Assembly: GCA_965116885.1 (NCBI GenBank)
Contig: OZ220741.1
Span: forward strand, 4,128,001-4,192,000
Reading direction: 5' to 3'
From: Candidatus Latescibacterota bacterium
Lineage (GTDB): Bacteria > Latescibacterota > UBA2968
DNA: 64,000 nucleotides
This document shows positions 27,118 through 42,994 of this stretch, piece by piece. The notes beneath the pieces are model-generated. The model searched no databases. It saw only the letters and a list, made by a program, of their open reading frames with translations, and had not been told where the DNA came from. Every line of letters starts with the position of its first letter. The first letter of the stretch is position 1. The translations under genes were made by a program, and so were the position numbers.

Positions 27118-30100
27118 ATGCGCGATATAGATACAACCATTCGCAACTTGATGTCAGAGCGCATTCTGCTGCTCGATGGGGCGATGGCTACGATGCTTCA
27201 GGCTTATGATCTGGACGAGCGAGCGTTTCGAGGCGATGGCTTTGCGGACCATCCCGTTGATCTGAAGGGATGTAGCGATCTCTTGTGCCTGACGCAGCCA
27301 CATTTGATCGCGGATATTCATCGGCGATTTTTGGATGCTGGAGCAGATATTATCGAGACAAATACGTTTAATGCCACGCCGATTTCAATGGCGGAATATC
27401 AGCTTCAGGACCGGGTTTACGACCTCAACGTAGCAGCCGCGCAGGTTGCGCGAAGAGTAGTTGATGAGGTGACAGTGCAAAATCCGGATAAGCCGCGATT
27501 TGTTGCGGGTGCTCTGGGACCAACGAGTTGTACGCTTTCGCTCTCGCCCAATGTGAATGATCCGGCTTTTCGCACGCATACATTTGAAGATGTGGTCAAT
27601 GGGTATTACGCGCAGATCGAGGGTTTGATGGCAGGGGGAGTGGATATAATCCTGGTGGAGACGGTGTTCGATACGCTTACGGCCAAAGCCGCGCTGTTTG
27701 CAGTGTCGCGTTATTTTTCGGATTGCGGTGTAAAAGTGCCCGTGATGATTTCTGGCACAGTAGCCGATCAAAGCGGACGCACATTGTCCGGTCAGACCAT
27801 AGAGGCATTCTGGTTGTCGGTGGCGCACGCGCAGCCCTTGAGTGTGGGGATTAACTGCGCCCTCGGTGCGCGGGAAATGCGGCCCTATGTGGAGGCTTTG
27901 TCGCATTTTGCACCGGCGTTTATGAGTTGTTATCCCAATGCAGGTTTGCCCAATGAGTTTGGGGAATACGACGATACTCCAGGTCATATGGCGGGTGTTT
28001 TGGGCGATTTTGCCGCGCAGGGTTGGCTCAATATCGTGGGCGGATGTTGTGGCACTACCCCCGAATATATCGCTGCGATTGCCGAGGCTGTATCCGATAA
28101 GGCACCGAGAAAAATTCCCGAGCGGCCTTCTGTGTCGCGGTTTAGCGGTTTGGAGCCGATGATTATTTATCCCGACTCCAATTTTATTATGATTGGCGAG
28201 CGCACCAATGTGACGGGGTCGCGGCGGTTTGCGCGGTTGATCAAAACGGGCGATTATGCAGCGGCCCTGGCGGTTGCGCGAGAGCAGGTGGTCGGTGGTG
28301 CGAATATGATCGATGTCAATATGGACGAGGGGTTGCTCGATTCAAAAGATGCTATGGCGACATTTTTAAAGCTGATCGCGGGCGAACCCGATATTGCGCG
28401 CGTGCCAATTGTGATTGACAGTTCCGATTTTGAGGTGATTGAGGCCGGGTTAAAATGTGTGCAAGGGAAGGCGATTGTCAATTCTATCAGTTTGAAAGAG
28501 GGCGAGGCGGTTTTTAAGTCGCAGGCGGAAACCGTCTTGCGCTATGGTGCTGCGGTTGTGGTAATGGCATTTGATGAAAAAGGGCAGGCGACTTCAATTG
28601 AAGATAAGGTGCGGATTTGCCGGCGCGCATATCGCATTTTGACAGAAGATGTGGGGATGGACCCATCGGATATTATTTTTGATCCGAATATTCTGACCGT
28701 TGCAACGGGTATTGAAGAGCATAACGATTATGCAGTCAATTTTATCGAGGCAGTGAAGCAGATCAAAGATCTGTGCCCGGGCGCGAAGACGAGTGGTGGC
28801 GTGAGCAATATTTCATTCTCTTTTCGGGGTAATGATTATGTGCGAGAGGCGATTCACGCGGCTTTCTTGTATCACGCGATTCAGGCGGGGCTGGATATGG
28901 GCATTGTCAATGCCGGACAGTTGATGGTGTATGAGGAAATCCCCGAGAATTTGTGCGTGCTGATTGAAGATGTGTTGTTCAACAGGCGGGAAGATGCAAC
29001 GGAACGGCTGGTGGATTTTGCTGAGTCTGTGCGGTCAGAGGGCAGGAGTCGTGAAAAAGACGATGCATGGCGACAGGGACCGGTTGAAGATCGCTTGAAG
29101 CACGCGCTGTTGCACGGGCAGTCAGAGCATCTTGAAGAGGATTTGGAAGAGGCACTTGGCAGGTACAAACCGCTGGAGATGATTGAAGGTCCATTGATGG
29201 ATGGGATGAATGTGGTGGGCGATTTGTTTGGCGCAGGCAAAATGTTTTTGCCCCAGGTGGTCAAAACAGCGCGCGTGATGAAGCAGGCGGTGGCGTATCT
29301 CGAGCCTTTGATGGAAGATGAGAAGGCAGGCGGTAGAGCACGGGGCAAGGTTCTGATGGCGACGGTGAAGGGCGATGTACACGATATTGGCAAGAATATT
29401 GTGGGCGTGGTTTTGGGGTGCAATAATTACGAGGTTATAGATTTGGGGGTGATGGTGCCCGCAGATCGCATTTTGAAAGTGGCACGAGAAAAAGAGGTCG
29501 ATATTATCGGGCTGAGCGGTTTGATTACACCGTCGCTCAATGAGATGGTCCATGTTGCGGGGGAGATGCAGCGAGAAGCGTTTGACGTGCCCCTTTTAAT
29601 TGGGGGAGCGACCACGAGCCGCAAGCATACGGCGGTGAAAATTGCGCCGGTTTACGATTATGCAACCGTGCATGTGAAGGATGCTTCGCGCGCAACAGGT
29701 GTGGTGGGTACGCTGTTGAACGCAGAGCAGCGCGATGAGTATGTACAGACAAATCGCGAGTCGCAGCAGCGAGCACTGGCAGAGTTCAATATTTCTCAGA
29801 GGCCGCTTATTTCGTACTCGGATGCTCTATCGCGTCACCAGATGTTTGATTGGGCACAGATTGATCTTCCCAGACCCAGTTTTACAGGTGCTCAGGCTTT
29901 GCGCGATTTCCCAATTTCCCAATTGGTCGATTTTATCGACTGGGGACCGTTTTTCCACGCATGGGAACTGCGAGGCAGTTATCCAAAGATATTGAATGAT
30001 CCTCACAAGGGCGCAGAGGCGCGCAAATTGTTCGAGGACGCGCAGGCAATGCTCCAGGTGATTGTCGATGAGGGATGGCTCAAGGCACAGGCTGTGTACG

Positions 30101-30774
30101 GATTTTTCCCTGCAAATACCGATGGCGACGATATTGTCGTGTTTGAAGATGAGTGCAGAGATACCGAGCGGGCGCGGTTGCACATGTTGCGCCAGCAGCA
30201 GGCAAAACGCACGGGAGGACCGCATTTTTCACTGGCGGATTTTGTCGCACCCGTCGGATACGCAGATTATATCGGGGCATTTGCCGTGACGGCCGGATTG
30301 GGCGTTGATGCAAAAGCCGCGGCGTTCAAGCACGCACTGGATGATTACAATGCCATTTTGCTCCAGGCTGTGGCGGACCGCCTGGCTGAGGCGTTTGCCG
30401 AGTTTTTGCACGCGAAGGCACGGCGAGATTGGGGATATGGTCTGGACGAGGCGTTGAGCAATGAGGATTTGATCCGGGAGAGATATCGCGGGATTCGCCC
30501 CGCGCCCGGTTATCCCGCCTGTCCGGATCACACGGAGAAGCAGACTTTGTTTGATTTGCTCGGGGTTGAGCGAGAGACGGAGATTCAGTTGACGGAAAAT
30601 TTTGCGATGTCCCCAGCGGCTTCGGTCAGCGGCTGGTATCTCGCACATCCCGAGGCGCGCTATTTTGCCGTGGGCAAGATCGACGCGGATCAGGTGACCG
30701 ATTACGCACAACGGAAGGGGATGCAGATGGACGAGATGGAACGCTGGCTGGCGCCGAATTTGGGGTATAAGTAG
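27118..30774 (+). CDS. metH: Cobalamin-dependent methionine synthase
   Basis: [36 protein letters not shown]. Confidence 0.98.
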
Positions 30775-30808: not shown

Positions 30809-31789
30809 ATGAACAAGGCTTATGTTGAGCGACGCGATGAAGGCTATTGGATTGTAAATACTCGAGTATCCCTGGATACCATCGTTTATGCTTTTCTGGA
30901 TGGACAATCTCCCGAGAGCATTGCCCAATCGCTTCCTGTACTGACACTTGAACAGATATATGGATCTATTGCATTCTATCTTGCTCACCAGCCAGAGGTT
31001 GAGACATATCTTGAGAGAGCGAAAACAGATTTCGAGACAAAGCGAAAAGCGTCTCGGGAATCAGATCCTGTATTTTATCAGAAATTAGCGGATACACGCG
31101 TCGTCTTGGAACAATTTGCAAATGAGTATGACATGAGCAAAAATTCTGATGATTCTGAAAAGGTTAGTTGGTGGACGAATGGCTGGGAAATTTTTGGGAA
31201 ATTTATGGCTATTGTGACTTGTACTGGTGTAATAGTTACAATATATATAAATCTGTCCCCAAGTGGCCCTGATTTAGTAGGGTATGGTTGGCACACAAGC
31301 TTGTATTATCCACCCCAATTTAAGGCAGCGCACGATAGTCTAAAAAATGTAACCACTTCGCACTACCTATATGATTTCATTGAGGAAAGAGACTCTACTA
31401 TATCCCAAGATTCTTTACAACGTATTGTTTCTGAACTCTCAGATTCGATTCAAGCTATCTTTGAGGAAGACTTTGTCTATTATCGAGGCTATGTGGTCAT
31501 CAAAATACGAAACGAAGGAGATAGAGTAGCATCAGATATTGTTCTCGATATTCCACGTCGCGGAATCGCTCTTATTACTCATCCAGACACAGTCCAATAT
31601 GTAACTCGGGTAGATAGAAATGTGTCCTTGAATAACCTCAGACCAGGCAATATTGTTGAAGTGCAGATCTGGACAGAGCGTCATATATTTACATCGGACG
31701 AAGGCACTCTCCAGATCACATACGATAGAGGGGTCGGGAGTATCTCCTTTAGCAAAGAATTTTCAGGAATGTGGAGAATCTATCGCTGA
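30809..31789 (+). CDS. DUF433 antitoxin-like domain fused in frame to an unrelated TM-anchored domain
   Basis: TRVSLDTIV...GQSPESIAQSLPVLTLEQIYGSIAFY (DUF433); second half starts near MSKNS (ATG 31133) with a TM helix. Confidence 0.75.
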   Translation: MNKAYVERRDEGYWIVNTRVSLDTIVYAFLDGQSPESIAQSLPVLTLEQIYGSIAFYLAHQPEVETYLERAKTDFETKRKASRESDPVFYQKLADTRVVLEQFANEYDMSKNSDDSEKVSWWTNGWEIFGKFMAIVTCTGVIVTIYINLSPSGPDLVGYGWHTSLYYPPQFKAAHDSLKNVTTSHYLYDFIEERDSTISQDSLQRIVSELSDSIQAIFEEDFVYYRGYVVIKIRNEGDRVASDIVLDIPRRGIALITHPDTVQYVTRVDRNVSLNNLRPGNIVEVQIWTERHIFTSDEGTLQITYDRGVGSISFSKEFSGMWRIYR

Positions 31790-31995: not shown

Positions 31996-34900
31996 ATGGG
32001 TAAATTTATCCGGATGGGTGTCGATTATCTTGGCTTTCTGTCTAAGCAGCTTGGCGACCTTCGTGGTATAACAACGCTAGCACACGAGCTTATCCAAAAT
32101 GCGGATGATGCGAAGGATGAATCAGGGGCGCTCTCTGCGACACGGATCACTTTTGATATCAATGACGATGCCCTGATTGTTAGTAATGATGCAGTCTTTA
32201 GAGAAATTGATTTTGAACGGATGCAAAATGTAGCCAGTGGTTCAAAACGCAGCGAATCTGGAGTTCGTACTACTGGGGCATTCGGAATTGGCTTTATCTC
32301 TGTATATCAAGTTACGGATAGACCAGAGATACACTCAGCAGGCCGTCGTTGGATCCTCCGTCCTGAAGCAGAAGAAGGCCGACGGATAGAAGAGTATAGC
32401 GATTCTTTGATCACTAAAGATAATGGCACTGTTTTCCGACTTCCTTGGGCTTTTGGGGAATCCGAGGTACGCACAAAACTAAAAGTTCCTCCGGTTGATA
32501 AAGATGCCCCTGATCTGTTTGTTAAGGAATTGAAGAACTCGTTGCCCAAAGCGATTTTATTCCTGAAGAAGCTTGAAAAGATTGAGTTATTTCGAAACGG
32601 CAAACGTGTCATTCAAGTTACAAAAATTAAAAAAGAGAATGTAGTCGAAGTTAATTGTGATGGTGTAAGCCAAAACTGGCGGGTTATGCAGGGAACCTTC
32701 CAAAATGAAGCCCTGGAACTAAAGAAGAAATTCCAATCGTATATTGAGGACAATCGCGAGGCCCAGGTTCAAATTGCTATCCCCGATACACTTCTCGCTG
32801 ATGGATTGCTATTTGCAACATTGCCAACTGAACAATCAACAGGACTACCGTTTCACATAGACGCAGATTTTTTCCCTACTTCTGATAGGAAATCCATTGC
32901 ATTTGAAGACATTAACATTATTGACCACCGATCTGAATGGAACCGTATGGCAATACGGGAAGCCGCATCCGTAATTGAAGCTAATCTGATTCCACTGCGA
33001 AATATGTTCAAAAATGATGCTTCAACATTTTGGGCTATCTTGAACAGTCTAAACCGCATATACCAAGAATACACAAACGACACACAGAAGCCGTTTGCTA
33101 CGTTTTGGAAGGTATTGCATCCATTGCTAAAAGCTTCACAAATCGTTTACACCGAATCAGAAAAATGGCTTACTCCTGACGAGACCCGCATTCCAACAGG
33201 TGAGAAAGAAGAAGAGGCTATCCCTATATTCAAAGCTCTAAACATTGAGATAGTCCATCAAGACCTAAAGAGATATCGCAATATACTGAGAAGCAATGGC
33301 GTAGGTGTGCTGAGAGTCAACGATATTTTTGAATCACTCCAGCACGAAGGATTGACCAAACATCCCAAGTGCGTTCCTTCAGACTTCCAGACTCCTGAGC
33401 AATTGGAACTGCTATGTAGAGGAATTTACGGGATACTTGAAAACACTCAGGGAGAATCAGCAAAGGAAGAAGCTAAAAAATTGTTGCGCCATTGCGCATT
33501 GGCTCCGGGGCTTGACGGACACCTCTGGCCATGTGGTTCAGTTTATCAAGCTGATGAGCACACCCTTAAAATCTTCGCTAATCTGATACCCGCCGATGTC
33601 TCGTTCTTAGCCGTAGAGGGGATACCTTTATTCAAAGAACTCTGTCCTCAATTCAAGGCCGGAAATGCTATTAAAGAGTTAGAGCGTCTGGAGACTGTGA
33701 AACTTCAGAGAGCTTGGAGAGACGACCATTTCGATCCTTCTACTGTGCTTAAATGGTTCGATAGCTATAAGAAAGAGCTATCCGAAAATGAAGAATTACC
33801 CAAAAGACTCGCAAAAATCCCCTTATTCCCATCCGCAGAAAGGCTATGTTCATTGGAAAATTTGTATCTACAGGGAGGATTCTCTGACCCAATAGGAGAA
33901 GCCGATCTTGTGGATATGAGACAACTCAAAGGGCTTTCAGATTTCCTGAAATTTTTGGGTGCCAAAGAACTCACATTCATAAACTATGCAGAACGCTACA
34001 TTCCAAGAGCGTTTGATGCTAATAAGGATACAAGTTTGGAAGCTAAATGCAAGCTTCTGGATATTTTGGCAACCCGCATCGGTGAGGTTCGGGAGAATGA
34101 CTGGCTACGGAATAAGCTCACTGAAGCAAACATCGTTGAATGTACAGACGGTGAGTTTCATCAACCAGAGCAAGTTTACTTCCCTCGCAAAGAAGTCAGA
34201 GCAATCTTTGAGGATTTTGTTCATTATGCCTGCCTTACCAAAAAATCGGAGAGCAGGAAGGACCTCTATCGCTGGCTGGGTATCGCAAGTCGCCCTCGCC
34301 CCTATGACGTATTGCGATTTATCGACAAATTAACGAACAAGCCACCTAATCAAAGCTCCATACAGGTAATAAAGAGAGTCTTGAAGGCTGTAGGGAACGC
34401 CTGGGATAGAATACCTGAAGATGAGAAGCAATCCTATGATCCTCTGAAAAATAAGAAATGGCTCTTGGCCGATGAATCAACTAAAAAATGGTACTGCCCC
34501 AACCAACTATACGCCGCTTACAATAAGAGCCTTTTCGAATCACAGGCGAAGTTTATTGATCTAACCGTACCAATACAGCAAAAAATCCGAGATTTCCTCG
34601 AATACCTGGGAGTCAATCTTAGACCACAGCCCTCTCAAGTGGCTCAACACCTACTCAAGTGCTCCAAACTTGATAGAGAACCCCCGAAAGGCATTTATCA
34701 GTGGCTGAACAATAGTGAGCAATCCCAGGACATCTATAAGTTAAAGAATTTCGCCTGTCTTCGTATCCAAGGTAAATATCTCCGTCCGGACCAAGTCTTC
34801 TGGGGACAGCATTATTTTGGCAGATTCCGCGTCCAATTGGGGACGGACTTTCTATCATATCAGAATCTACTCCAAACACTTGGTATCAAGGAGTCACCCG

Positions 34901-36666
34901 ATTATAGTGATGCATTTGAAGTATTGAAGGACATCTCAACAGCAATAGGCAATAATCGATTGAAGCCAGAGGACAAAACCGTTGTAACCCATTGCTGGAT
35001 CATGCTAACCGAGGCACTCCAAAGCGAACAACTCGATTCAGCAAGCATACAAACTGAATTACATAGTATCCAATGTGTGCCAAATCTTGACAATATATTG
35101 TACCTGCCGTCCAGAATATTCTTTGAAGACCGTCCTCGCCTCGCAGACAAATTCTCTGAACCACTCGAAAAACATACGATTCCACGTAAAGAAGGCATTT
35201 TGCAGGCACTAGAAGCTGCCGGAGTTAGGCCAATCTCAGATATAGTAAGAGGATTTATAGATGAATCTGTAAACTCGCAGGAAGACGAGATGCTGAAGAC
35301 ACGAGTCATAGAGCGTACTGATCTCATTAGAACTATCTCAAATGATACGGTCCAACTTGACAGTATCCGCTTTCTACGCACGAATCAACTCAAGGTAAAA
35401 TGGTCTCTTAAGGACTTTATCCACGACTGGCCGCCTACTTCACCTGAACCGGTCGAGGCCCATTTGGATGGAGATGAGCAGGCTATCTATTTTGTTTTAC
35501 GAAATGGTAATATTCGCCCATGGCCAGCTATTGCCCGTGAATTAACTCAGTTAATCGCTCCAAGGAAGGAAATTGGGGCCATTTCCCCTGGACTTAAGAT
35601 AATTCTGGAAGCATCTACCTACGAAGATGCGGTAGAGCAACTCAATGATTTGGGCATAGCTCTTACTGAAGAACTGAGAAATCTGGCAAAAACAGGAAGA
35701 GTTGCAAAAACATTTGACGAGAAACCTTCCAGTGAAAATCAGGAATTATCCGATTCTTCACAGAATGGAGTAATGTCAAGTAGCGGCATTGAAAAGACTC
35801 ATCAGAATGAATTGGAAGACGAAGATGATGTAAGCGGCCATACATCCGATACTACGTCCAATCCGACTATCTCAGACAGCAATGGTACGGAATATAGCAC
35901 AGAGAATAATAATGAAAAATCAGATGGTATTGATAGAAATGGTCACACCAAAGGAGAACAGGAAGAGAATACCGAAGATGATGTTAAAGATGGCAAAACT
36001 ACGATGACTCGTGATCCGAAAAGCGGACAAACTACAGATAATGTTAAGGATCAGAACAACAGTAATGGTACGAGTCAGAAGGAATCAAATCGTTCAAACG
36101 GACTGAACAGACCGAGACCCGAAACAGGTCGGGCGGCAGAGGATTGGCTCGAAAAAAGGCTCGAACAAGTGTTCCCAAACTGTGTACAACGACATATTAG
36201 AGATAAAGCAAATAGAGAAAGTGATTTTGTTGTTTTATCCGGTAGCTGCAAGTTTCATATAGAGGTCAAACATGTGGCAAATTGGCCAGGAACATTTTAT
36301 TGGTCCGAACTCGAATGTGAAAAAGCTCAACTCCTCGAAGAGAGTAATGATGAATATATTATGGCAATCCTTTCTCCCAACGGAGGCAGAGAGTATAAAA
36401 TACATTGGATCTGGCATCCACTCGATGAATTGAAAAGCGCATCTCGAGAGGTCCAATGGACAGGTAACAGCGATTATGAACTGGTGGACGCCGATTCTTG
36501 GGATGTCGAGACACGGAGACCTGACGAAGTTCCCACAAAACGACACAGATTTCGTATCAAGCTGGACGGCGAAGCCGTCAAGGGATTTGAGGAAGACACG
36601 GGGGGGCTTGAGGCATTGTGCAGAAAGATTGATAGTGTGAATGCTGAGATGGGAATAGAGTCATAA
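31996..36666 (+). CDS. Sacsin-like GHKL ATPase with C-terminal DUF3883/NOV-type PD-(D/E)xK nuclease
   Basis: ELIQNADDA, GAFGIGFISVYQVTDRPEIHS, GTVFRLP, TGLPFHIDADF; C-terminal GRAAE...SDF...IEVK...WSELE. Confidence 0.85.
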   Translation: MGKFIRMGVDYLGFLSKQLGDLRGITTLAHELIQNADDAKDESGALSATRITFDINDDALIVSNDAVFREIDFERMQNVASGSKRSESGVRTTGAFGIGFISVYQVTDRPEIHSAGRRWILRPEAEEGRRIEEYSDSLITKDNGTVFRLPWAFGESEVRTKLKVPPVDKDAPDLFVKELKNSLPKAILFLKKLEKIELFRNGKRVIQVTKIKKENVVEVNCDGVSQNWRVMQGTFQNEALELKKKFQSYIEDNREAQVQIAIPDTLLADGLLFATLPTEQSTGLPFHIDADFFPTSDRKSIAFEDINIIDHRSEWNRMAIREAASVIEANLIPLRNMFKNDASTFWAILNSLNRIYQEYTNDTQKPFATFWKVLHPLLKASQIVYTESEKWLTPDETRIPTGEKEEEAIPIFKALNIEIVHQDLKRYRNILRSNGVGVLRVNDIFESLQHEGLTKHPKCVPSDFQTPEQLELLCRGIYGILENTQGESAKEEAKKLLRHCALAPGLDGHLWPCGSVYQADEHTLKIFANLIPADVSFLAVEGIPLFKELCPQFKAGNAIKELERLETVKLQRAWRDDHFDPSTVLKWFDSYKKELSENEELPKRLAKIPLFPSAERLCSLENLYLQGGFSDPIGEADLVDMRQLKGLSDFLKFLGAKELTFINYAERYIPRAFDANKDTSLEAKCKLLDILATRIGEVRENDWLRNKLTEANIVECTDGEFHQPEQVYFPRKEVRAIFEDFVHYACLTKKSESRKDLYRWLGIASRPRPYDVLRFIDKLTNKPPNQSSIQVIKRVLKAVGNAWDRIPEDEKQSYDPLKNKKWLLADESTKKWYCPNQLYAAYNKSLFESQAKFIDLTVPIQQKIRDFLEYLGVNLRPQPSQVAQHLLKCSKLDREPPKGIYQWLNNSEQSQDIYKLKNFACLRIQGKYLRPDQVFWGQHYFGRFRVQLGTDFLSYQNLLQTLGIKESPDYSDAFEVLKDISTAIGNNRLKPEDKTVVTHCWIMLTEALQSEQLDSASIQTELHSIQCVPNLDNILYLPSRIFFEDRPRLADKFSEPLEKHTIPRKEGILQALEAAGVRPISDIVRGFIDESVNSQEDEMLKTRVIERTDLIRTISNDTVQLDSIRFLRTNQLKVKWSLKDFIHDWPPTSPEPVEAHLDGDEQAIYFVLRNGNIRPWPAIARELTQLIAPRKEIGAISPGLKIILEASTYEDAVEQLNDLGIALTEELRNLAKTGRVAKTFDEKPSSENQELSDSSQNGVMSSSGIEKTHQNELEDEDDVSGHTSDTTSNPTISDSNGTEYSTENNNEKSDGIDRNGHTKGEQEENTEDDVKDGKTTMTRDPKSGQTTDNVKDQNNSNGTSQKESNRSNGLNRPRPETGRAAEDWLEKRLEQVFPNCVQRHIRDKANRESDFVVLSGSCKFHIEVKHVANWPGTFYWSELECEKAQLLEESNDEYIMAILSPNGGREYKIHWIWHPLDELKSASREVQWTGNSDYELVDADSWDVETRRPDEVPTKRHRFRIKLDGEAVKGFEEDTGGLEALCRKIDSVNAEMGIES

Positions 36667-36802: not shown

Positions 36803-37630
36803 TCAATACTCATTTTCTGCCATAGCTTCTTCTAAATCAGGAATGTCAGGCACAAGCAAAGTCAAAAACTTCCCGTTGTATCCTAACTCGATAACTGATT
36901 CTGTAGCTCCAATCTCAAAGGGTAAATCATCAAACCACTCGTCGAGTGATATGGGGCAGGCATCTTCTTCTTTGCGACCATTGATATAATCATAGGTAAG
37001 GGTGGTTCCTTTTACCGGTTTTTTACTGAGAAAATCCTGTTTATACGTTTCTTTCATACGGTTAGAACGCTGTTCATACTCAATGAGTCCTTCCTCATTA
37101 CAAACCACAAGTGTACAGGCAAGATCTGTAAGTTCTATAAAACGTAGCACAGCGGCATATGACGAAATACCAAAATGCTCAGATAATTCCAATATAGTTT
37201 CCTTCGTATATTCCTTATACCTCATCGCGGTCTGAAATGCTTTCTTGGGAGCTAAGAAACAAATGGCAAAGTAGTCGGCTTCTCGTTCAATTCGCTCTTT
37301 CGACTGAAATTCGCACTTGGATCGATGCAGTCCTGCTGTTTCCAACATTCGCCTGTGCTCCGGAATATTAATGTGTCCCAACTCATGGGAGAGTGTAAAC
37401 CTGTGGAATTTGTTGCTCCAGAAATGGTCACTATTAAATCCAATCAGATAGTTGCCACCTCCCAATGCTTTGGAAAATCCAGAAAAATCATCTCCGAATG
37501 ATTTCTCCAGGTAGCGATATTCAGATTTCTGAATCTGATCAACAATATCTTCGATAACCTCGTTATCACCAATTGCCATGTTTTCCCGAAGTTGGGCCGC
37601 ATGTGCTGCTATTGATTGTCGCAAATTCAT
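36803..37630 (-). CDS. ImmA/IrrE family metallopeptidase (CapP-like)
   Basis: RFTLSHELGH (HExxH), EREADYFA..LAP, LSEHFGIS. Confidence 0.9.
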   Translation of the reverse strand: MNLRQSIAAHAAQLRENMAIGDNEVIEDIVDQIQKSEYRYLEKSFGDDFSGFSKALGGGNYLIGFNSDHFWSNKFHRFTLSHELGHINIPEHRRMLETAGLHRSKCEFQSKERIEREADYFAICFLAPKKAFQTAMRYKEYTKETILELSEHFGISSYAAVLRFIELTDLACTLVVCNEEGLIEYEQRSNRMKETYKQDFLSKKPVKGTTLTYDYINGRKEEDACPISLDEWFDDLPFEIGATESVIELGYNGKFLTLLVPDIPDLEEAMAENEY

Positions 37631-37956
37631 CTTATACCTCTTTTTCTAACCTGTTCGTTCTGCTTTAGTATTACTACATATTCATTAATCTTATTAAGTG
37701 TGTCAGGCGATAAATCCCGTATATTTCGCATTAACAACGTTTTTTCAAACTCTCCTTTATCTTGTCCAGCTAGATCCACTTCGAGTATATTTAAAATCTG
37801 AGCAAACTTGCGAATATTGGCTGGCGTTGGCATTCTTAGACCTTTCTCAAACTGGGAAATCGAAGCCTGAGTCAGCCCTATAGCCCTTGCCAATTCTACT
37901 TGGCTCATACCCTTGTTTATCCGTGCCCTCCTGAGTCGTTCTCCAAATTCTGACAT
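37627..37956 (-). CDS. XRE-family HTH regulator (CapH-like)
   Basis: FGERLRRAR..GMSQVELARAIGLTQASISQFEKG; ATGA overlap with the peptidase gene. Confidence 0.92.
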   Translation of the reverse strand: MSEFGERLRRARINKGMSQVELARAIGLTQASISQFEKGLRMPTPANIRKFAQILNILEVDLAGQDKGEFEKTLLMRNIRDLSPDTLNKINEYVVILKQNEQVRKRGIR

Positions 37957-37973
37957 GACTTTTCTCCTTTTTC

Positions 37974-38056
37974 TTGACGAAATAAATTTATGTGTTATAT
38001 TATAGCACCATCTTATGAAAATTCAAGGGTCAATTCACAACCCATTGTCTTGAAAT
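37974..38056. promoter_or_regulatory. Overlapping divergent promoters with candidate operator palindromes
   Basis: Plus strand TTGACG-16-TATATT; minus strand TTGAAT-16-TATAAT with TG; ATAAATTTAT palindrome; TTCAAG...CTTGAA inverted repeat. Confidence 0.55.
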
Positions 38057-38072
38057 TGAAAGGAGTTGCCTC

Positions 38073-38465
38073 ATGGCTCGCATATTCATCAGTTTCGCGA
38101 TAGAAGACCGAATCCTACGGGATTTTCTCGTTGGTCAGAAACGGAATACACGTAGCCCCATTGTTTTCACTGATTATTCTGTGAAAGAACCGTGGTCATC
38201 AAGATGGAAGACGAATTGTCGCCAAAGAATAAGATCCTGCGCTGGAGTGATAGGAATTATTACAAAACATACATCAAAAGCAGATGGACAATTGTGGGAG
38301 TTGAAGTGTGCGATTGAAGAAAATGTGCCCTCAATTCTCATTCATGGATACAGGGCACCTCAAAAAAGACTATCTATACTCCCCTCAATCATCAGAGGTC
38401 GTCGCGTCAATATCTGGACTGAAGATAACATTGTCAACTTTCTTAACAAGTTCTCAGGGAGATGA
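38073..38465 (+). CDS. TIR domain protein (ThsB/MTH538-like)
   Basis: RIFISF, DYSVKEPW, RIRSC, LWELKCA (catalytic Glu); AAGGAG RBS. Confidence 0.88.
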   Translation: MARIFISFAIEDRILRDFLVGQKRNTRSPIVFTDYSVKEPWSSRWKTNCRQRIRSCAGVIGIITKHTSKADGQLWELKCAIEENVPSILIHGYRAPQKRLSILPSIIRGRRVNIWTEDNIVNFLNKFSGR

Positions 38466-38469
38466 TACG

Positions 38470-39468
38470 ATGAAAAAAGCTCTTATAGTTGGAATTGATA
38501 ATTACGATCCACCCAATGCATTGGGTGGATGCGTGAATGACGCAGTAGAGGTGAGTAGGGTCATAGAAATGAACGAGGATAGATCGCCAAACTTTGATGT
38601 TCGGTACATGATTAGTAGCGAGAGTGGTGTAACTAGCCAAAGGTTAAACGAAGCATTAAAAGAATTGTTCTCTGGTCAAGCAGAAACAGTAATCTTTTAT
38701 TTTGCTGGGCATGGTATCATCGATGATGTGGCCAATGATGGCTATCTAGTTACTCAAGATGGAAGTGAGCCTAATTGGGGTATTTCTTTATCCCATATCC
38801 TCGAAATGGCCAATAATTCTCATCCTAAAATCCAATCTACGGTGATTATTTTGGATAGCTGTAATTCAGGTTTTGCAGGAGAAGTGTCCGGCCTGGGGCA
38901 AGGTGATGCCACCCCTTCAATAATCGGAAATGGCGTGACTATACTGACGGCCTGCCATCGTCAAGGAACAGCGGCAGAGTCAAATGGACACGGAACATTT
39001 ACGTCAATTATTCTGGATGGATTGCGCGGTGCGGCCTGTGATGTCATTGGCCGCATAACGCCAGCTTCCCTTTATGCTCATGTGGATCAGACTCTTGGAG
39101 CATGGGAGCAACGTCCTATCTACAAGGCGAATGTTCAGAGTTTTATCACCCTGCGTGAAGTCAGCCCTAAAGTACCTTTAGAGGTGCTTCGTAGGCTTCC
39201 AGAATATTTTCCGAATTCTTCAGATGTATTCAAACTTGATCCAACTTTCGAACCGGACCGTGGGGAGAAAGCTGACTGTTTGAAGAACATCCCTATCAAT
39301 GAGGACAACGTAACTATCTATCGGGAACTTCAGCAGTGCAATCGTGTCAATTTGGTCGTACCAGTAGGCTATGATCATATGTGGCATGCAGCCGTGTTTT
39401 CAGGAGGGTGCAGACTGACCGCCACTGGAGCCCATTATCGCAAATTAGCCAAACTCAATAGAATTTAG
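38470..39468 (+). CDS. Caspase-like (peptidase C14) protease with C-terminal extension
   Basis: KALIVGIDNY, LGGCVNDA, FYFAGHG (His), ILDSCNSG (Cys), HGTFTS. Confidence 0.93.
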   Translation: MKKALIVGIDNYDPPNALGGCVNDAVEVSRVIEMNEDRSPNFDVRYMISSESGVTSQRLNEALKELFSGQAETVIFYFAGHGIIDDVANDGYLVTQDGSEPNWGISLSHILEMANNSHPKIQSTVIILDSCNSGFAGEVSGLGQGDATPSIIGNGVTILTACHRQGTAAESNGHGTFTSIILDGLRGAACDVIGRITPASLYAHVDQTLGAWEQRPIYKANVQSFITLREVSPKVPLEVLRRLPEYFPNSSDVFKLDPTFEPDRGEKADCLKNIPINEDNVTIYRELQQCNRVNLVVPVGYDHMWHAAVFSGGCRLTATGAHYRKLAKLNRI

Positions 39469-39478
39469 GGAGGTACCA

Positions 39479-39961
39479 ATGCCGATTAAAGTATTCATAT
39501 CGCACAAAGACTCTGATGCAATAATTGCCGAAAGCGTTAACAGACGTATTCGTAGGAATGGACTGGAAACATATCTTGATGTTATCGACGACGCTCTTGG
39601 GAAAGATGGACCAGACCTCGCAGATCATCTTTTAAGTAGGATGGGGGAGTGCCAGCAACTTGTGGCTGTTGTTTCATCCTCCACCAAAGATTCTTGGTGG
39701 GTACCGTGGGAGATTGGTGTCGGCGCAGAGAAGGGATTTCTAATGGCGAGCTTTTCATATAGCCATGTTCAGTTGCCAAGCTATCTTGAAAAATGGCCTG
39801 CTCTTCACTCTGATCGTGATATTGATCTTTATTGCCGATATTCAAGGCGGACAGATGCAGAGATTGGCAGGAGATATTGGCTCACAGAACAACAAAAATT
39901 TTCCCTTCGCAAAGACGAAGCCCTTAATTTCCATAAACAACTACGTACTGCTTTGGGTTGA
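39479..39961 (+). CDS. Second TIR domain protein (TIR_2-like)
   Basis: KVFISHKDSD, SWWVPWEIGVG (catalytic Glu), LPSYL; GGAGG RBS. Confidence 0.88.
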   Translation: MPIKVFISHKDSDAIIAESVNRRIRRNGLETYLDVIDDALGKDGPDLADHLLSRMGECQQLVAVVSSSTKDSWWVPWEIGVGAEKGFLMASFSYSHVQLPSYLEKWPALHSDRDIDLYCRYSRRTDAEIGRRYWLTEQQKFSLRKDEALNFHKQLRTALG

Positions 39962-40294: not shown

Positions 40295-40606
40295 ATGCCA
40301 CCAACACGTCCACCTTATCCAGCCGAGTTGAAGCACCAAATCATCGAGCTTGTGCGCGCTGGTCGCTCTCCGGCTGAACTGGCCAGAGAGTTTGAGCCGA
40401 CCGCTCAGACCATCCAAAACTGGATACGCCAAGCTGATCGAGATGAAGGACTTCGAGAAGACGGCCTGACCAGTTCTGAGCGAGAAGAGTTGCGTGTTCT
40501 TCGACGTGAGAACAAGCAGTTGCGCATTGAGCGCGAGATACTCTCAAAAGCAGCAGCCTGGTTCGCAGCGGAGACCGACGCGATCCCAAGAAAATCTTCG
40601 CGTTGA
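40295..40606 (+). CDS. IS3 transposase OrfA
   Basis: YPAELKHQII..LAREF HTH; LRRENKQLRIEREILSKAAAWFA. Confidence 0.93.
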   Translation: MPPTRPPYPAELKHQIIELVRAGRSPAELAREFEPTAQTIQNWIRQADRDEGLREDGLTSSEREELRVLRRENKQLRIEREILSKAAAWFAAETDAIPRKSSR

Positions 40607-41454
40607 TAAAAGCGCACCAGGCACTTTGGCCTATCGCCACGCAATGCCGAGTCTTGGGTGTCTCCCTCAGCGGGTATTATGCCTGGCGAGCACGTCCACC
40701 CTCTAAACGAGCAAAGGTTGATGTGGACCTGAAGAAGCATATCGAAGCCTTTCATACCCGATCAGATGGTACTTATGGTGCCCCTCGCATTTGGAAAGAT
40801 CTGATGGATATAGGCATCCTTGTAGGCAAGAAGCGCGTGGCGCGTCTGATGCGTGAGATGGGTATTTGTGGCATAAGCCGCAGAAAGAGCACGCAAACGA
40901 CGTGTAAGGTGCAACAGTCTGATAAGGCTCCCGATCTGGTCAAGCGTGACTTTGCTGTGGCAACGGTCAATAAACTCTGGGTAGCCGACATCACCTACGT
41001 ACCCACTTGGTCGGGCTTCTTGTATCTCAGTGTTGTCATAGATGCCTTCTCCCGCCGCGTCGTGGGTTGGGCAATGGCAACACACCTGCAAAGTGAGTTG
41101 GTCTTGTCAGCTTTGAATATGGCCCTTTACCAGCGTCGTCCCGAAGGCGTGATCCACCACTCTGATCAGGGGGCGCAATATACCTCCATCGCATTTGGAG
41201 AGCGTTGTCGTGAAACTGGCGTACGTCCTTCAATGGGGGTTGCTGGCGACTGCTATGACAACGCGCTGTGCGAGAGCTTCTTCGCCACGCTTGAATGTGA
41301 ACTGATCAATCGCCGATCCTTCCGTACGCACAAGGAAGCCCGCTTGGCTATCTTCTCCTACATTGAAGGATGGTATAATCCACATCGCAGGCATTCTTCC
41401 ATCGCCTACTATGCGCCGATAGCTTATGAAAAACTGCATCTATCACGGGCTTGA
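40603..41454 (+). CDS. IS3 transposase OrfB (DDE)
   Basis: WVADITYV, HHSDQGAQY, DNALCESFF; -1 frame relative to orfA. Confidence 0.95.
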   Translation: MIKAHQALWPIATQCRVLGVSLSGYYAWRARPPSKRAKVDVDLKKHIEAFHTRSDGTYGAPRIWKDLMDIGILVGKKRVARLMREMGICGISRRKSTQTTCKVQQSDKAPDLVKRDFAVATVNKLWVADITYVPTWSGFLYLSVVIDAFSRRVVGWAMATHLQSELVLSALNMALYQRRPEGVIHHSDQGAQYTSIAFGERCRETGVRPSMGVAGDCYDNALCESFFATLECELINRRSFRTHKEARLAIFSYIEGWYNPHRRHSSIAYYAPIAYEKLHLSRA

Positions 41455-41645: not shown

Positions 41646-42161
41646 TTGAACTATCAAAGCCTATACTGGGATGCCTTAATGCAACTCAGGGCCAGTGTTT
41701 ATTATTTACAAGCCTATCAGATACACTCTGAAAAATGGGATAACAGGATACAGATATTTTTGGCTATTACCTCCAGTTCAAGCATTGGTGGATGGGTTAT
41801 TTGGAATGAATATGGCATAATTTGGGGGTGCGTAATTGCCGTCTCACAAGTGATCAATGCCATCAAGGGATTTTTGCCATTTCAGAAACGAGCTAAGCAG
41901 ATCGGGAGCCTTAATACAGAAGTGGAAAAGTTGGCCTTGGATGCAGAAAGCCAGTGGTATTCGGTATTTGAAGGCAAACTTACCGACGAGGATATTTTCA
42001 ACCTCGTCACCAAACTAAAGCAGCAAAAACTGGAGGCATCACACAAGCATTTCAAAGATCAAGCTCTACCGACAAAATCAAAGTACATCACCGAAGCAGA
42101 GGAACGAACAAGGGCCTATTTTCAGACCTATATAAAGGCCTTTACAACAGGAGAGAGTTAA
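41646..42161 (+). CDS. SLATT-like two-TM protein
   Basis: Two hydrophobic helices followed by a helical tail; TTGACA-16-TATATT at 41506-41533. Confidence 0.55.
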   Translation: MNYQSLYWDALMQLRASVYYLQAYQIHSEKWDNRIQIFLAITSSSSIGGWVIWNEYGIIWGCVIAVSQVINAIKGFLPFQKRAKQIGSLNTEVEKLALDAESQWYSVFEGKLTDEDIFNLVTKLKQQKLEASHKHFKDQALPTKSKYITEAEERTRAYFQTYIKAFTTGES

Positions 42162-42162
42162 A

Positions 42163-42396
42163 ATGGCTAAAAAAAAGAATTCCATGAGAAAAGAAGAACC
42201 ATCAGGGAATAGACGGACCTCAGCTACGTCCACTAAGCGAGACACCCGCCTAGTGTTCCAAAGCGAAGATCGGAATATACCTACTTTCGACGTAGGTCTC
42301 CCCATGCCCCAAGCAGCTAAGCCTCCTAAAGAAAGTGATGGAGCAGACTTGTCGCCAAGTCAGAGAGAGAAATCTTCGCCAGAGAAGCCTTCTTAA
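42163..42396 (+). CDS. Small disordered hypothetical protein
   Basis: 77-aa ORF 1 bp after the previous stop, with GGAGAG RBS. Confidence 0.4.
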   Translation: MAKKKNSMRKEEPSGNRRTSATSTKRDTRLVFQSEDRNIPTFDVGLPMPQAAKPPKESDGADLSPSQREKSSPEKPS

Positions 42397-42488: not shown

Positions 42489-42727
42489 GTGTACTCAAGG
42501 TGGTGCGGTGTAAAACCGTTTGGTGCATCTTTGGATTGACCTGGGTGGCTACGGGATTTGTCAGGCACGGTACACAATTTTTGAGTATAATAATCTTTAT
42601 ACTCAAAAATGACCTTGAAAACCCCTGTTTTTTCGAGCAAATTGCAGATAGACATTTATCATTATATACAAAAAGAGGAGGGGGCGATTCGCCCGGTTCG
42701 ACAGCGCATCTATGGAGACACGACGCG

Positions 42728-42994
42728 ATGAAGAGAACATTGACTATTGACTACGGTAGCGAAGTCCTGCTGGCCCTCGGATATACACCTAAGCAGTTCA
42801 GCGAAGAGGCCAAGATCCTCATCGCCGTCAAGCTCTACGAGTTAGGCCGTTTGTCCTCGGAGGGAGCAGCCAAGCTGGCCGGCATTCCCAAGCCCTTATT
42901 TCTGACAAAGCTCGCCGAATACGGCGTCGATACCTTCCAACTGACTGAGGACGACCTCCAACAGGACTTAGATAGTGCCCGTCGTCATCTGTAA
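42728..42994 (+). CDS. UPF0175 family antitoxin-like protein
   Basis: AVKLYELGRLSSEGAAKLAGIPKPLFLTKLAEYGV..LTEDDLQQDL; GGAGA RBS. Confidence 0.85.
   Translation: MKRTLTIDYGSEVLLALGYTPKQFSEEAKILIAVKLYELGRLSSEGAAKLAGIPKPLFLTKLAEYGVDTFQLTEDDLQQDLDSARRHL

Follow-up and report, generated by a model that had tools for sequence, protein, structure and literature searches.

A probable type IV Thoeris operon with two unrelated TIR genes beside a divergent CapH/CapP pair in a Candidatus Latescibacterota genome

We analyzed a 64,000-nucleotide (nt) stretch of a Candidatus Latescibacterota genome (assembly GCA_965116885.1, contig OZ220741.1, positions 4,128,001 to 4,192,000; hereafter, the window), in which three genes on the + strand encode a short TIR protein (TIR-A), a caspase-like C14 protease, and a second TIR protein (TIR-B), an arrangement that recalls type IV Thoeris anti-phage systems. 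The intergenic gaps are 4 nt (TIR-A/caspase) and 10 nt (caspase/TIR-B), and each gene is preceded by a Shine-Dalgarno-like site (aaaggag, gggag, and gggagg for TIR-A, caspase, and TIR-B, respectively). The three reading frames are unbroken and each keeps its catalytic residues, and the ATG at 38470 that begins the caspase is the start in its homologues too. An initial annotation, made from the sequence alone, had described three tightly spaced genes in which both TIR proteins keep the catalytic glutamate (within LWE and PWE) and the protease keeps an AGHG/DSC dyad. Our data bear out this description and place the residues at Glu76 of TIR-A, Glu78 of TIR-B, and His81 and Cys131 of the caspase. 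The features of the locus and of its surroundings are listed in Table 1.

Table 1. Features of the TIR-caspase-TIR operon, its putative regulators, and the surrounding island (positions in the window; aa, amino acids; ORF, open reading frame; HTH, helix-turn-helix; TM, transmembrane)
Feature	Position	Strand	Description
TIR-A	38073-38465	+	130 aa, short ThsB-type TIR; Glu76 codon 38298-38300
Caspase-like C14 protease ORF	38470-39468	+	332 aa; start ATG 38470 (MKKALIVG...)
C14 protease domain of caspase	38470-39162	+	Residues 1-231; His81, 38710-38712; Cys131, 38860-38862
Caspase C-terminal domain	39163-39468	+	Residues 232-332 plus stop; presumed signal-sensing domain, no known family
TIR-B	39479-39961	+	160 aa; Glu78, 39710-39712, in WVPWE; C-terminal extension of ~70 aa
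capH	37627-37956	-	109 aa, XRE-type HTH repressor; PADLOC capH 3e-14, Pfam HTH_3 2.5e-16
capP	36803-37630	-	275 aa, M78/ImmA-type metallopeptidase, HExxH within SHELGH; PADLOC 2.6e-38, Peptidase_M78 1.6e-12
Divergent control region	37957-38072		116 bp, back-to-back sigma-70-like promoters; presumed CapH operator region
metH	27118-30774		Flanks the low-GC stretch
Pyruvate kinase	43817 onward		Other flank of the low-GC stretch
DUF433 protein	30809-31789	+	326 aa, match at N-terminus only; edge of the low-GC island
Tiamat TmtA	31996-36666	+	1556 aa; PADLOC 1083 bits over residues 4-1347; Pfam sacsin/GHKL-like N-terminal domain
IS3-family element	40295-41454	+	Two overlapping ORFs, HTH_Tnp_1 then rve integrase core; 330 bp downstream of TIR-B
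SLATT-like two-TM ORF	41646-42161	+	171 aa, two predicted TM helices; weak PADLOC RTasSLATT match, E 0.0012
ORF after the SLATT-like ORF	within 41646-42396	+	77 aa
UPF0175 (antitoxin-like) protein	42725-42994	+	89 aa; other edge of the low-GC island

The family libraries that we used were Pfam, PADLOC-DB 2.0.0, and NCBIfam, none of which holds a type IV Thoeris model. Profile searches, proposed as a check in the initial annotation together with a structure model of the caspase, matched the effector to Pfam Peptidase_C14 over residues 2-220 (E 4.3e-16) and to the PADLOC profile named caspase (E 4.9e-18), and TIR-B clearly, TIR-A marginally, to ThsB. The AlphaFold2 model is a confident caspase fold (predicted local distance difference test score [pLDDT], 96.7; predicted template modeling score, 0.92), and its first 231 or 234 residues match metacaspase 4 (Z 23.1), metacaspase 9 (Z 22.9), and the caspase domain of MALT1 (Z 22.3), a resemblance with which Foldseek concurs. 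The effector thus shares its fold and His/Cys dyad with metacaspases and MALT1, as well as the GC.NDA and DSC.SG motifs in an alignment with the yeast metacaspase Yca1, whereas those proteins are eukaryotic, carry other regulatory domains, and in no case possess the C-terminal domain of the effector. A PDB sequence search with the caspase alone as query returned nothing below E 0.1, and by this measure it has no close sequence homologue among solved chains.

Relatives of the effector are numerous. A word-indexed search gave 6572 matches at E ≤ 0.001 among 7999 scored candidates, and the 120 best are all 330-333 aa long, with 63-92% identity and a query coverage of 98-100%. An exhaustive search of representatives clustered at 50% identity returned 7858 matches at E ≤ 0.001, of which 391 reached E ≤ 1e-30; because the latter are mostly 310-350 aa long and match from end to end, the protease and the C-terminal domain appear to travel together. 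In an alignment of 100 family representatives, His81 and Asp24 are invariant, and Cys131 and Asp129 are each kept in at least 90% of the sequences. We take the positions of Asp24 and Asp129 to be those that line the pocket for a basic P1 residue in metacaspases.

The initial annotation had also noted a C-terminal extension of about 100 aa, and we find it to comprise 101 aa (residues 232-332) beyond the structural matches to residues 1-231. Every row of a wide VIA-align search was likewise limited to residues 1-231, and residues 232-332 had no Pfam or PDB match by sequence. A search of the ESM Atlas with residues 228-332 returned a best score of 0.86, to unnamed clusters. The domain is nevertheless conserved within the family, the 100-sequence alignment giving F247, L256, E261, L295, P298, A307, A308, C314, L316, T317, G320, and Y323 as conserved columns, a short list from which residues of the presumed ligand pocket could be chosen for mutagenesis. 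Two relatives speak to its role: in P0255 (371 aa), the same caspase domain leads into a SAVED domain in place of the C-terminal domain, and P0232 (836 aa) is a single-chain TIR-TPR-caspase fusion with the C-terminal domain included. The two architectures are compatible with a sensor role for the domain, which may bind the signal. Signal binding by the caspase C-terminal extension is also the hypothesis put forward by Rousset et al. (bioRxiv 10.1101/2024.10.24.620036).

TIR-A was assessed through its family. Of 55 genome loci with a caspase relative, 51 had an ORF directly upstream of the caspase, and 41 of these ORFs match ThsB_TIR or TIR_2 at E ≤ 0.01 (36 above the gathering score). Among the remaining 10 loci, 8 hold a TIR-A-like gene at that place (64-76% identity by tblastn), and the other 2 are L049, where the caspase is disrupted, and L055, a 35%-identical outlier. 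Glu76 and Ser36 are invariant in all 43 aligned sequences (TIR-A and 42 upstream proteins), and a profile of this alignment retrieved from the PDB the TIR structure 8fz9 (3.9e-9), EcThsB (8wcf, 3.4e-6), and ThsB (6lhy, 9.7e-6). In addition, Foldseek matched the TIR-A model (pLDDT 88.5) to the Bacillus cereus TIR protein 8fz9 (template modeling score, 0.69) and also to the SARM1 TIR domain and EcThsB. By family profile and by model, TIR-A is therefore a TIR protein, and judging from gene order across these loci, it is the canonical upstream TIR of the caspase family.

TIR-B has no detectable similarity to TIR-A (E 0.26) and is a TIR family apart. It exceeds the gathering score of Pfam TIR_2 (33.5 bits vs. 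28; E 6.6e-8) and matches PADLOC ThsB (7.9e-14) and the TIR structure 8btn in the PDB (4.1e-5). Glu78 lies in a WVPWE motif that is invariant in 20 of 20 TIR-B sequences, and the same sequences conserve P100, L103, W106, P107, and D116 in the C-terminal extension. Distant TIR-B-like proteins of ~190 aa occur beside Type ISP restriction-modification genes in another genome of the same genus (G081, loci L138 and L156), in which no caspase is present; these proteins match the TIR-B profile at E about 1e-35 over residues 3-126 only.

We then counted gene layouts over the 55 genome loci pooled with 80 metagenome loci (tblastn, E ≤ 1e-3). Of the 121 loci that extend 450 nt or more upstream of the caspase, 91 have a TIR-A-like gene directly before it, and of the 109 that extend 550 nt or more downstream, 29 have a TIR-B-like gene directly after it; in 10 further loci, the TIR-B-like gene is upstream. 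Within the clade at ≥64% identity, TIR-B is downstream in 22 of the 32 loci with room for it. We inferred a quick maximum-likelihood tree from 83 caspases, one from the window and 82 from loci that have both flanks and the gene at full length (the other 53 being omitted), with branch support from the Shimodaira-Hasegawa-like approximate likelihood ratio test (SH-aLRT) alone. It places the window caspase in a clade of 24 rows (SH-aLRT 97), 20 of which have TIR-B directly downstream, and a second group of the tree has TIR-B upstream. Across the TIR-B loci, we found no conserved fourth gene after TIR-B, the next gene usually being on the opposite strand. Because TIR-B is kept beside the caspase in 20 of the 24 clade rows and in 22 of the 32 loci at ≥64% identity, TIR-A, caspase, and TIR-B are, by these comparative counts, an inherited unit and not an accident of the island. 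Likewise, the TIR/caspase arrangement is, on the evidence of homology, far beyond chance, because all three proteins have conserved homologues arranged in the same way elsewhere.

Variants of the layout were also seen. A gene for a subtilase of ~390 aa (Peptidase_S8) lies directly downstream of the caspase in L028, L041, L043, and L045; the last three have TIR-B upstream as well and would thus form a four-gene TIR-B/TIR-A/caspase/S8 variant, and L028 has no TIR-B-like gene. Two other relatives are damaged by mobile elements: in L001, transposase genes stand on both sides of TIR-A/caspase (IS66-type upstream, and a DDE transposase at the expected place of TIR-B), and in L049, the match is limited to caspase residues 112-332, with a TIR-A-like gene 2.9 kb upstream.

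Upstream of the operon, an HTH repressor gene (capH) and an M78 metallopeptidase gene (capP) are encoded together beside the putative promoter of the predicted immune operon. The two genes overlap by 4 nt and are transcribed away from the TIR operon, with capP second. The control region between them and TIR-A carries a promoter-like site on each strand, with 10 of 12 consensus matches in both cases: TTGACG-16/18-TATATT/TATTAT on the + strand (37974-38003) and TTGAAT-16-TATAAT on the - strand (38026-37999). An inverted-repeat scan of 37957-38072 found a single 9-nt pair, 89% complementary, and we claim no operator.

According to PMC13373217, CapH and CapP are DNA-damage-responsive controllers of adjoining immune operons, in which CapP is activated by single-stranded DNA (ssDNA) and cleaves CapH, thereby de-repressing the operon; the paper lists CBASS, Pycsar, BREX, DISARM, and Bub among the operons under CapH+CapP control, and it reports type IV Thoeris with CapK+CapS in 12 cases. 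The pair in the window resembles such regulators in its gene order (HTH repressor, then M78 peptidase, divergent from the immune operon) and in its strong PADLOC matches, and it differs in that the regulated operon here would be type IV Thoeris. Among the passages found in our literature search, none reports type IV Thoeris with CapH+CapP. One other locus, L093, likewise has capH-capP divergent before a TIR-caspase operon.

For a broader view of regulators, we scanned 80 minus-strand ORFs from the 68 loci that have one just upstream of the TIR gene. Of these 68 loci, 8 (L015, L026, L032, L070, L072, L074, L096, and L110) carry, upstream of the TIR gene and divergent from it, a gene for a LexA-like repressor (Peptidase_S24 plus LexA_DNA_bind), and several of the eight have a DNA methylase adjoining or fused. 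Judged from these neighborhoods, damage-responsive repressors are a recurring minority companion of TIR-caspase operons, and the pattern suggests SOS-type control of some type IV Thoeris systems.

How does the operon relate to characterized systems? According to Rousset et al. (bioRxiv 10.1101/2024.10.24.620036, cited as Science 2025), type IV Thoeris is a two-gene operon of a TIR and a caspase-like ThsE, the validated proteins come from Pseudomonas sp. 1-7 and E. coli 328, and the mutants include PsTIR E79Q and PsCaspase C129A. We found an operon of exactly this layout on the E. coli plasmid NZ_CP024822.1, with a 124-aa TIR gene ahead of a 317-aa caspase gene. The plasmid TIR shares 35% identity with TIR-A (E 2e-26), and the plasmid caspase shares 42% with the window caspase over residues 1-326, C-terminal domain included (E 2e-90). 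The window locus encodes a C14 effector with an intact His/Cys dyad, a conserved effector C-terminal region that aligns with the plasmid protein to residue 326, and adjoining short TIR proteins (recognized by the TIR_2 score of TIR-B and by the 3.9e-9 family profile match and fold of TIR-A) with the catalytic Glu. The catalytic residue numbers lie within 1-3 of the published E79 and C129. Of 123 full-length relatives, 81 have the caspase cysteine at position 130 and 35 have it at 131, and the E. coli plasmid protein has it at 129; counted on the alignment, 129-aa TIRs of relatives (e.g., Pseudomonas, L045) have their Glu at 79. These matching numbers fit the published mutants and prove nothing. 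Full-length caspase relatives with 40-61% identity occur on plasmids of many genera, several with an annotated TIR neighbor. A DNA search of complete E. coli genomes with the TIR-caspase DNA of a Klebsiella relative (L027:3500-5000) gave no match, and the accessions of our caspase matches have no occurrence in the part of the PMC13069673 supplement that was searched, which excludes Table S6.

As in type IV Thoeris, the locus lies in a defense island and its relatives are patchy across phyla. It differs from the published two-gene form in having three genes, the extra one being the unrelated TIR family TIR-B, and in that the subclade of TIR-A has departed from the Pfam TIR models; further differences are the CapH/CapP pair upstream and the fact that the window member is known from sequence alone. 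A second comparison is with type I Thoeris systems that have several ThsB proteins, such as ThsA/ThsB1/ThsB2 of Staphylococcus aureus (PMC12578639), which also combine several TIR sensors with one effector per operon. There, however, the effector is a SIR2/STALD NADase activated by gcADPR and not a caspase-like protease, whereas in the window two TIRs flank the effector gene. The usual reading of multi-TIR systems (PMC13069673) is that different TIRs recognize different phage cues; by analogy with the multi-ThsB type I systems, it is plausible that the two unlike TIRs of the window do the same.

Taken together, the locus is very probably a full abortive-infection system of the type IV Thoeris family, equipped with one more sensor gene and a transcriptional switch of its own. 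The caspase fold, the conserved C-terminal domain, the upstream TIR, and the defense island all support the type IV Thoeris-like operon proposed in the initial annotation. Several observations weigh against this assignment. The link to validated proteins is indirect, running via an unvalidated E. coli plasmid operon and residue numbers, and TIR sequence does not reveal the signal molecule, since a single TIR cluster is shared by type I and type IV operons (Yirmiya et al.). As a single sequence, TIR-A falls below the Pfam thresholds (TIR_2, E 0.18) and reaches E 0.0028 with PADLOC ThsB, and the best NCBIfam model for the effector, caspase_w_EACC1, scores 77 bits vs. a cutoff of 140. In addition, CapH/CapP beside a TIR-caspase pair is rare, with CapP in 1 of 135 other loci (tblastn) and an M78 peptidase in 2 of the 68 loci scanned for regulators.

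Given the characterized systems and the CapH/CapP family, we postulate the following course of events, for which we infer NADase activity, signal identity, and phage protection along with the steps between them. CapH would repress the divergent promoter until DNA damage during infection, or ssDNA, activates CapP, whereupon CapH would be cleaved and the operon expressed. TIR-A, and probably TIR-B, would then recognize a phage cue and, through Glu76 and Glu78, convert NAD+ into a cyclic ADP-ribose-type signal, most likely N7-cyclic ADP-ribose (N7-cADPR), as in characterized systems. Binding of this signal by the caspase C-terminal domain would switch on the His81/Cys131 protease, which would cut many cell proteins, presumably after arginine as the characterized enzyme does, and the infected cell would be stopped before phage release.

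The identity of the messenger is the point at which this scheme is most open to a rival account. TIR-to-caspase signaling could run on a molecule other than N7-cADPR, or the products of TIR-A and TIR-B could differ, in which case the clade would stand apart as a Thoeris subtype with its own chemistry. TIR-A, like its marine relatives, has diverged from what the Pfam TIR models capture (10 of the 51 upstream ORFs give no match), TIR-A and TIR-B share no detectable similarity, the caspase is just 42% identical to that of the E. coli plasmid, and, with one TIR cluster split between type I and type IV operons, the TIR sequence is no guide to the product. However, because the caspase C-terminal domain is well conserved across the whole family, Enterobacteria and Pseudomonas relatives included, one ligand is argued for; moreover, according to Rousset et al., the product of the E. 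coli TIR activates the Pseudomonas caspase, so signaling crosses distant members. We regard a different messenger as unlikely. A separate matter is whether TIR-B feeds the caspase at all. It could instead belong to a module of its own, e.g., a TIR + SLATT pair (type VII-like Thoeris) with the two-TM protein at 41646-42161 from which an IS3 insertion has split it, or it could act as a regulator or decoy. The TIR + SLATT combination is the type VII Thoeris of Yirmiya et al., the weakly matching SLATT-like ORF does lie downstream past the IS3 element, a 38%-identical homologue of it stands just upstream of a TIR-caspase pair in Cupriavidus basilensis OR16 (L022, 2843-3337), and the TIR-B-like proteins beside Type ISP restriction enzymes in the same genus manage without a caspase. 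Yet TIR-B begins 10 nt past the caspase stop with its own ribosome-binding site, 20 of the 24 clade members have inherited it along with the caspase, no gene is conserved after it, and a SLATT-like homologue is present in 0 of the 29 loci with TIR-B downstream, while such homologues occur on two plasmids without a TIR neighbor. A role for TIR-B outside caspase signaling is thus quite improbable, and the SLATT-like ORF in particular is judged unlikely to be its partner, in view of its absence from all 29 loci and of the clade-wide linkage of TIR-B to the caspase.

Finally, the effector could be a non-defense orthocaspase with TIR neighbors by chance, or the operon an inactive remnant, as the IS3 element 330 bp downstream might be taken to indicate. 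We give this very little credence: none of the three frames is broken or lacks its catalytic residues, members of the caspase family almost always have an adjacent TIR, defense genes flank the locus, and the caspase is strongly conserved across phyla while being absent from the other genomes of the genus, a patchiness typical of mobile defense genes.

Within the type IV Thoeris reading, we tentatively propose something more specific, namely that TIR-A, caspase, and TIR-B form a subtype of type IV in its own right, with three components inherited vertically as a set, in which TIR-B provides a second, non-redundant input (another phage cue or a second signal) and, in this genome, CapH/CapP gates expression. 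If true, killing would need two successive checks, DNA damage for expression and then phage sensing for activation. In our literature search, we found neither two TIR families nor CapH/CapP described for any type IV system. The locus itself belongs to a known system and adds to it, modestly, a layout with two TIRs and a pairing with CapH/CapP; no new principle emerges from it. Type IV Thoeris ties TIR signaling to caspase-like cell death in bacteria and raises the questions of how the protease senses its signal and how the TIRs sense phage. The window offers an intact natural case with two unrelated TIRs around one effector, in a layout conserved in its clade and well suited to asking whether different TIR families lead to the same signal, and it would place a lethal effector under a DNA-damage-responsive CapH/CapP switch.

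The operon sits within a low-GC stretch (G+C fraction of 0.40-0.46 vs. about 0.54 in the flanks) of a host genome assembled as one 5.56-Mb contig. A search for the caspase came up empty in the 20 other genomes of the genus and in 30 of the family and gave a match in 3 of 167 others of the phylum; the nearest named relatives of the caspase, at 64-72% identity, are from marine Rhodobacterales. Because the nearest named relatives are these Rhodobacterales and the caspase is absent from the genus genomes, the comparison points to horizontal acquisition of the operon. TmtA of the Tiamat system is convergent with capP and stands beside the TIR-caspase operon; the island therefore holds at least two defense systems. 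The low-GC island with this adjoining Tiamat, its probable horizontal origin, the absence of the caspase from the other genomes of the genus, the CapH/CapP pair, and the standing of TIR-A (not TIR-B) as the canonical partner had all been overlooked in the initial annotation. On the other side of the operon, a search for the borders of the IS3 element gave one weak inverted repeat only, and a disrupted gene is not evident. The SLATT-like two-TM ORF beyond it may be a separate small effector.

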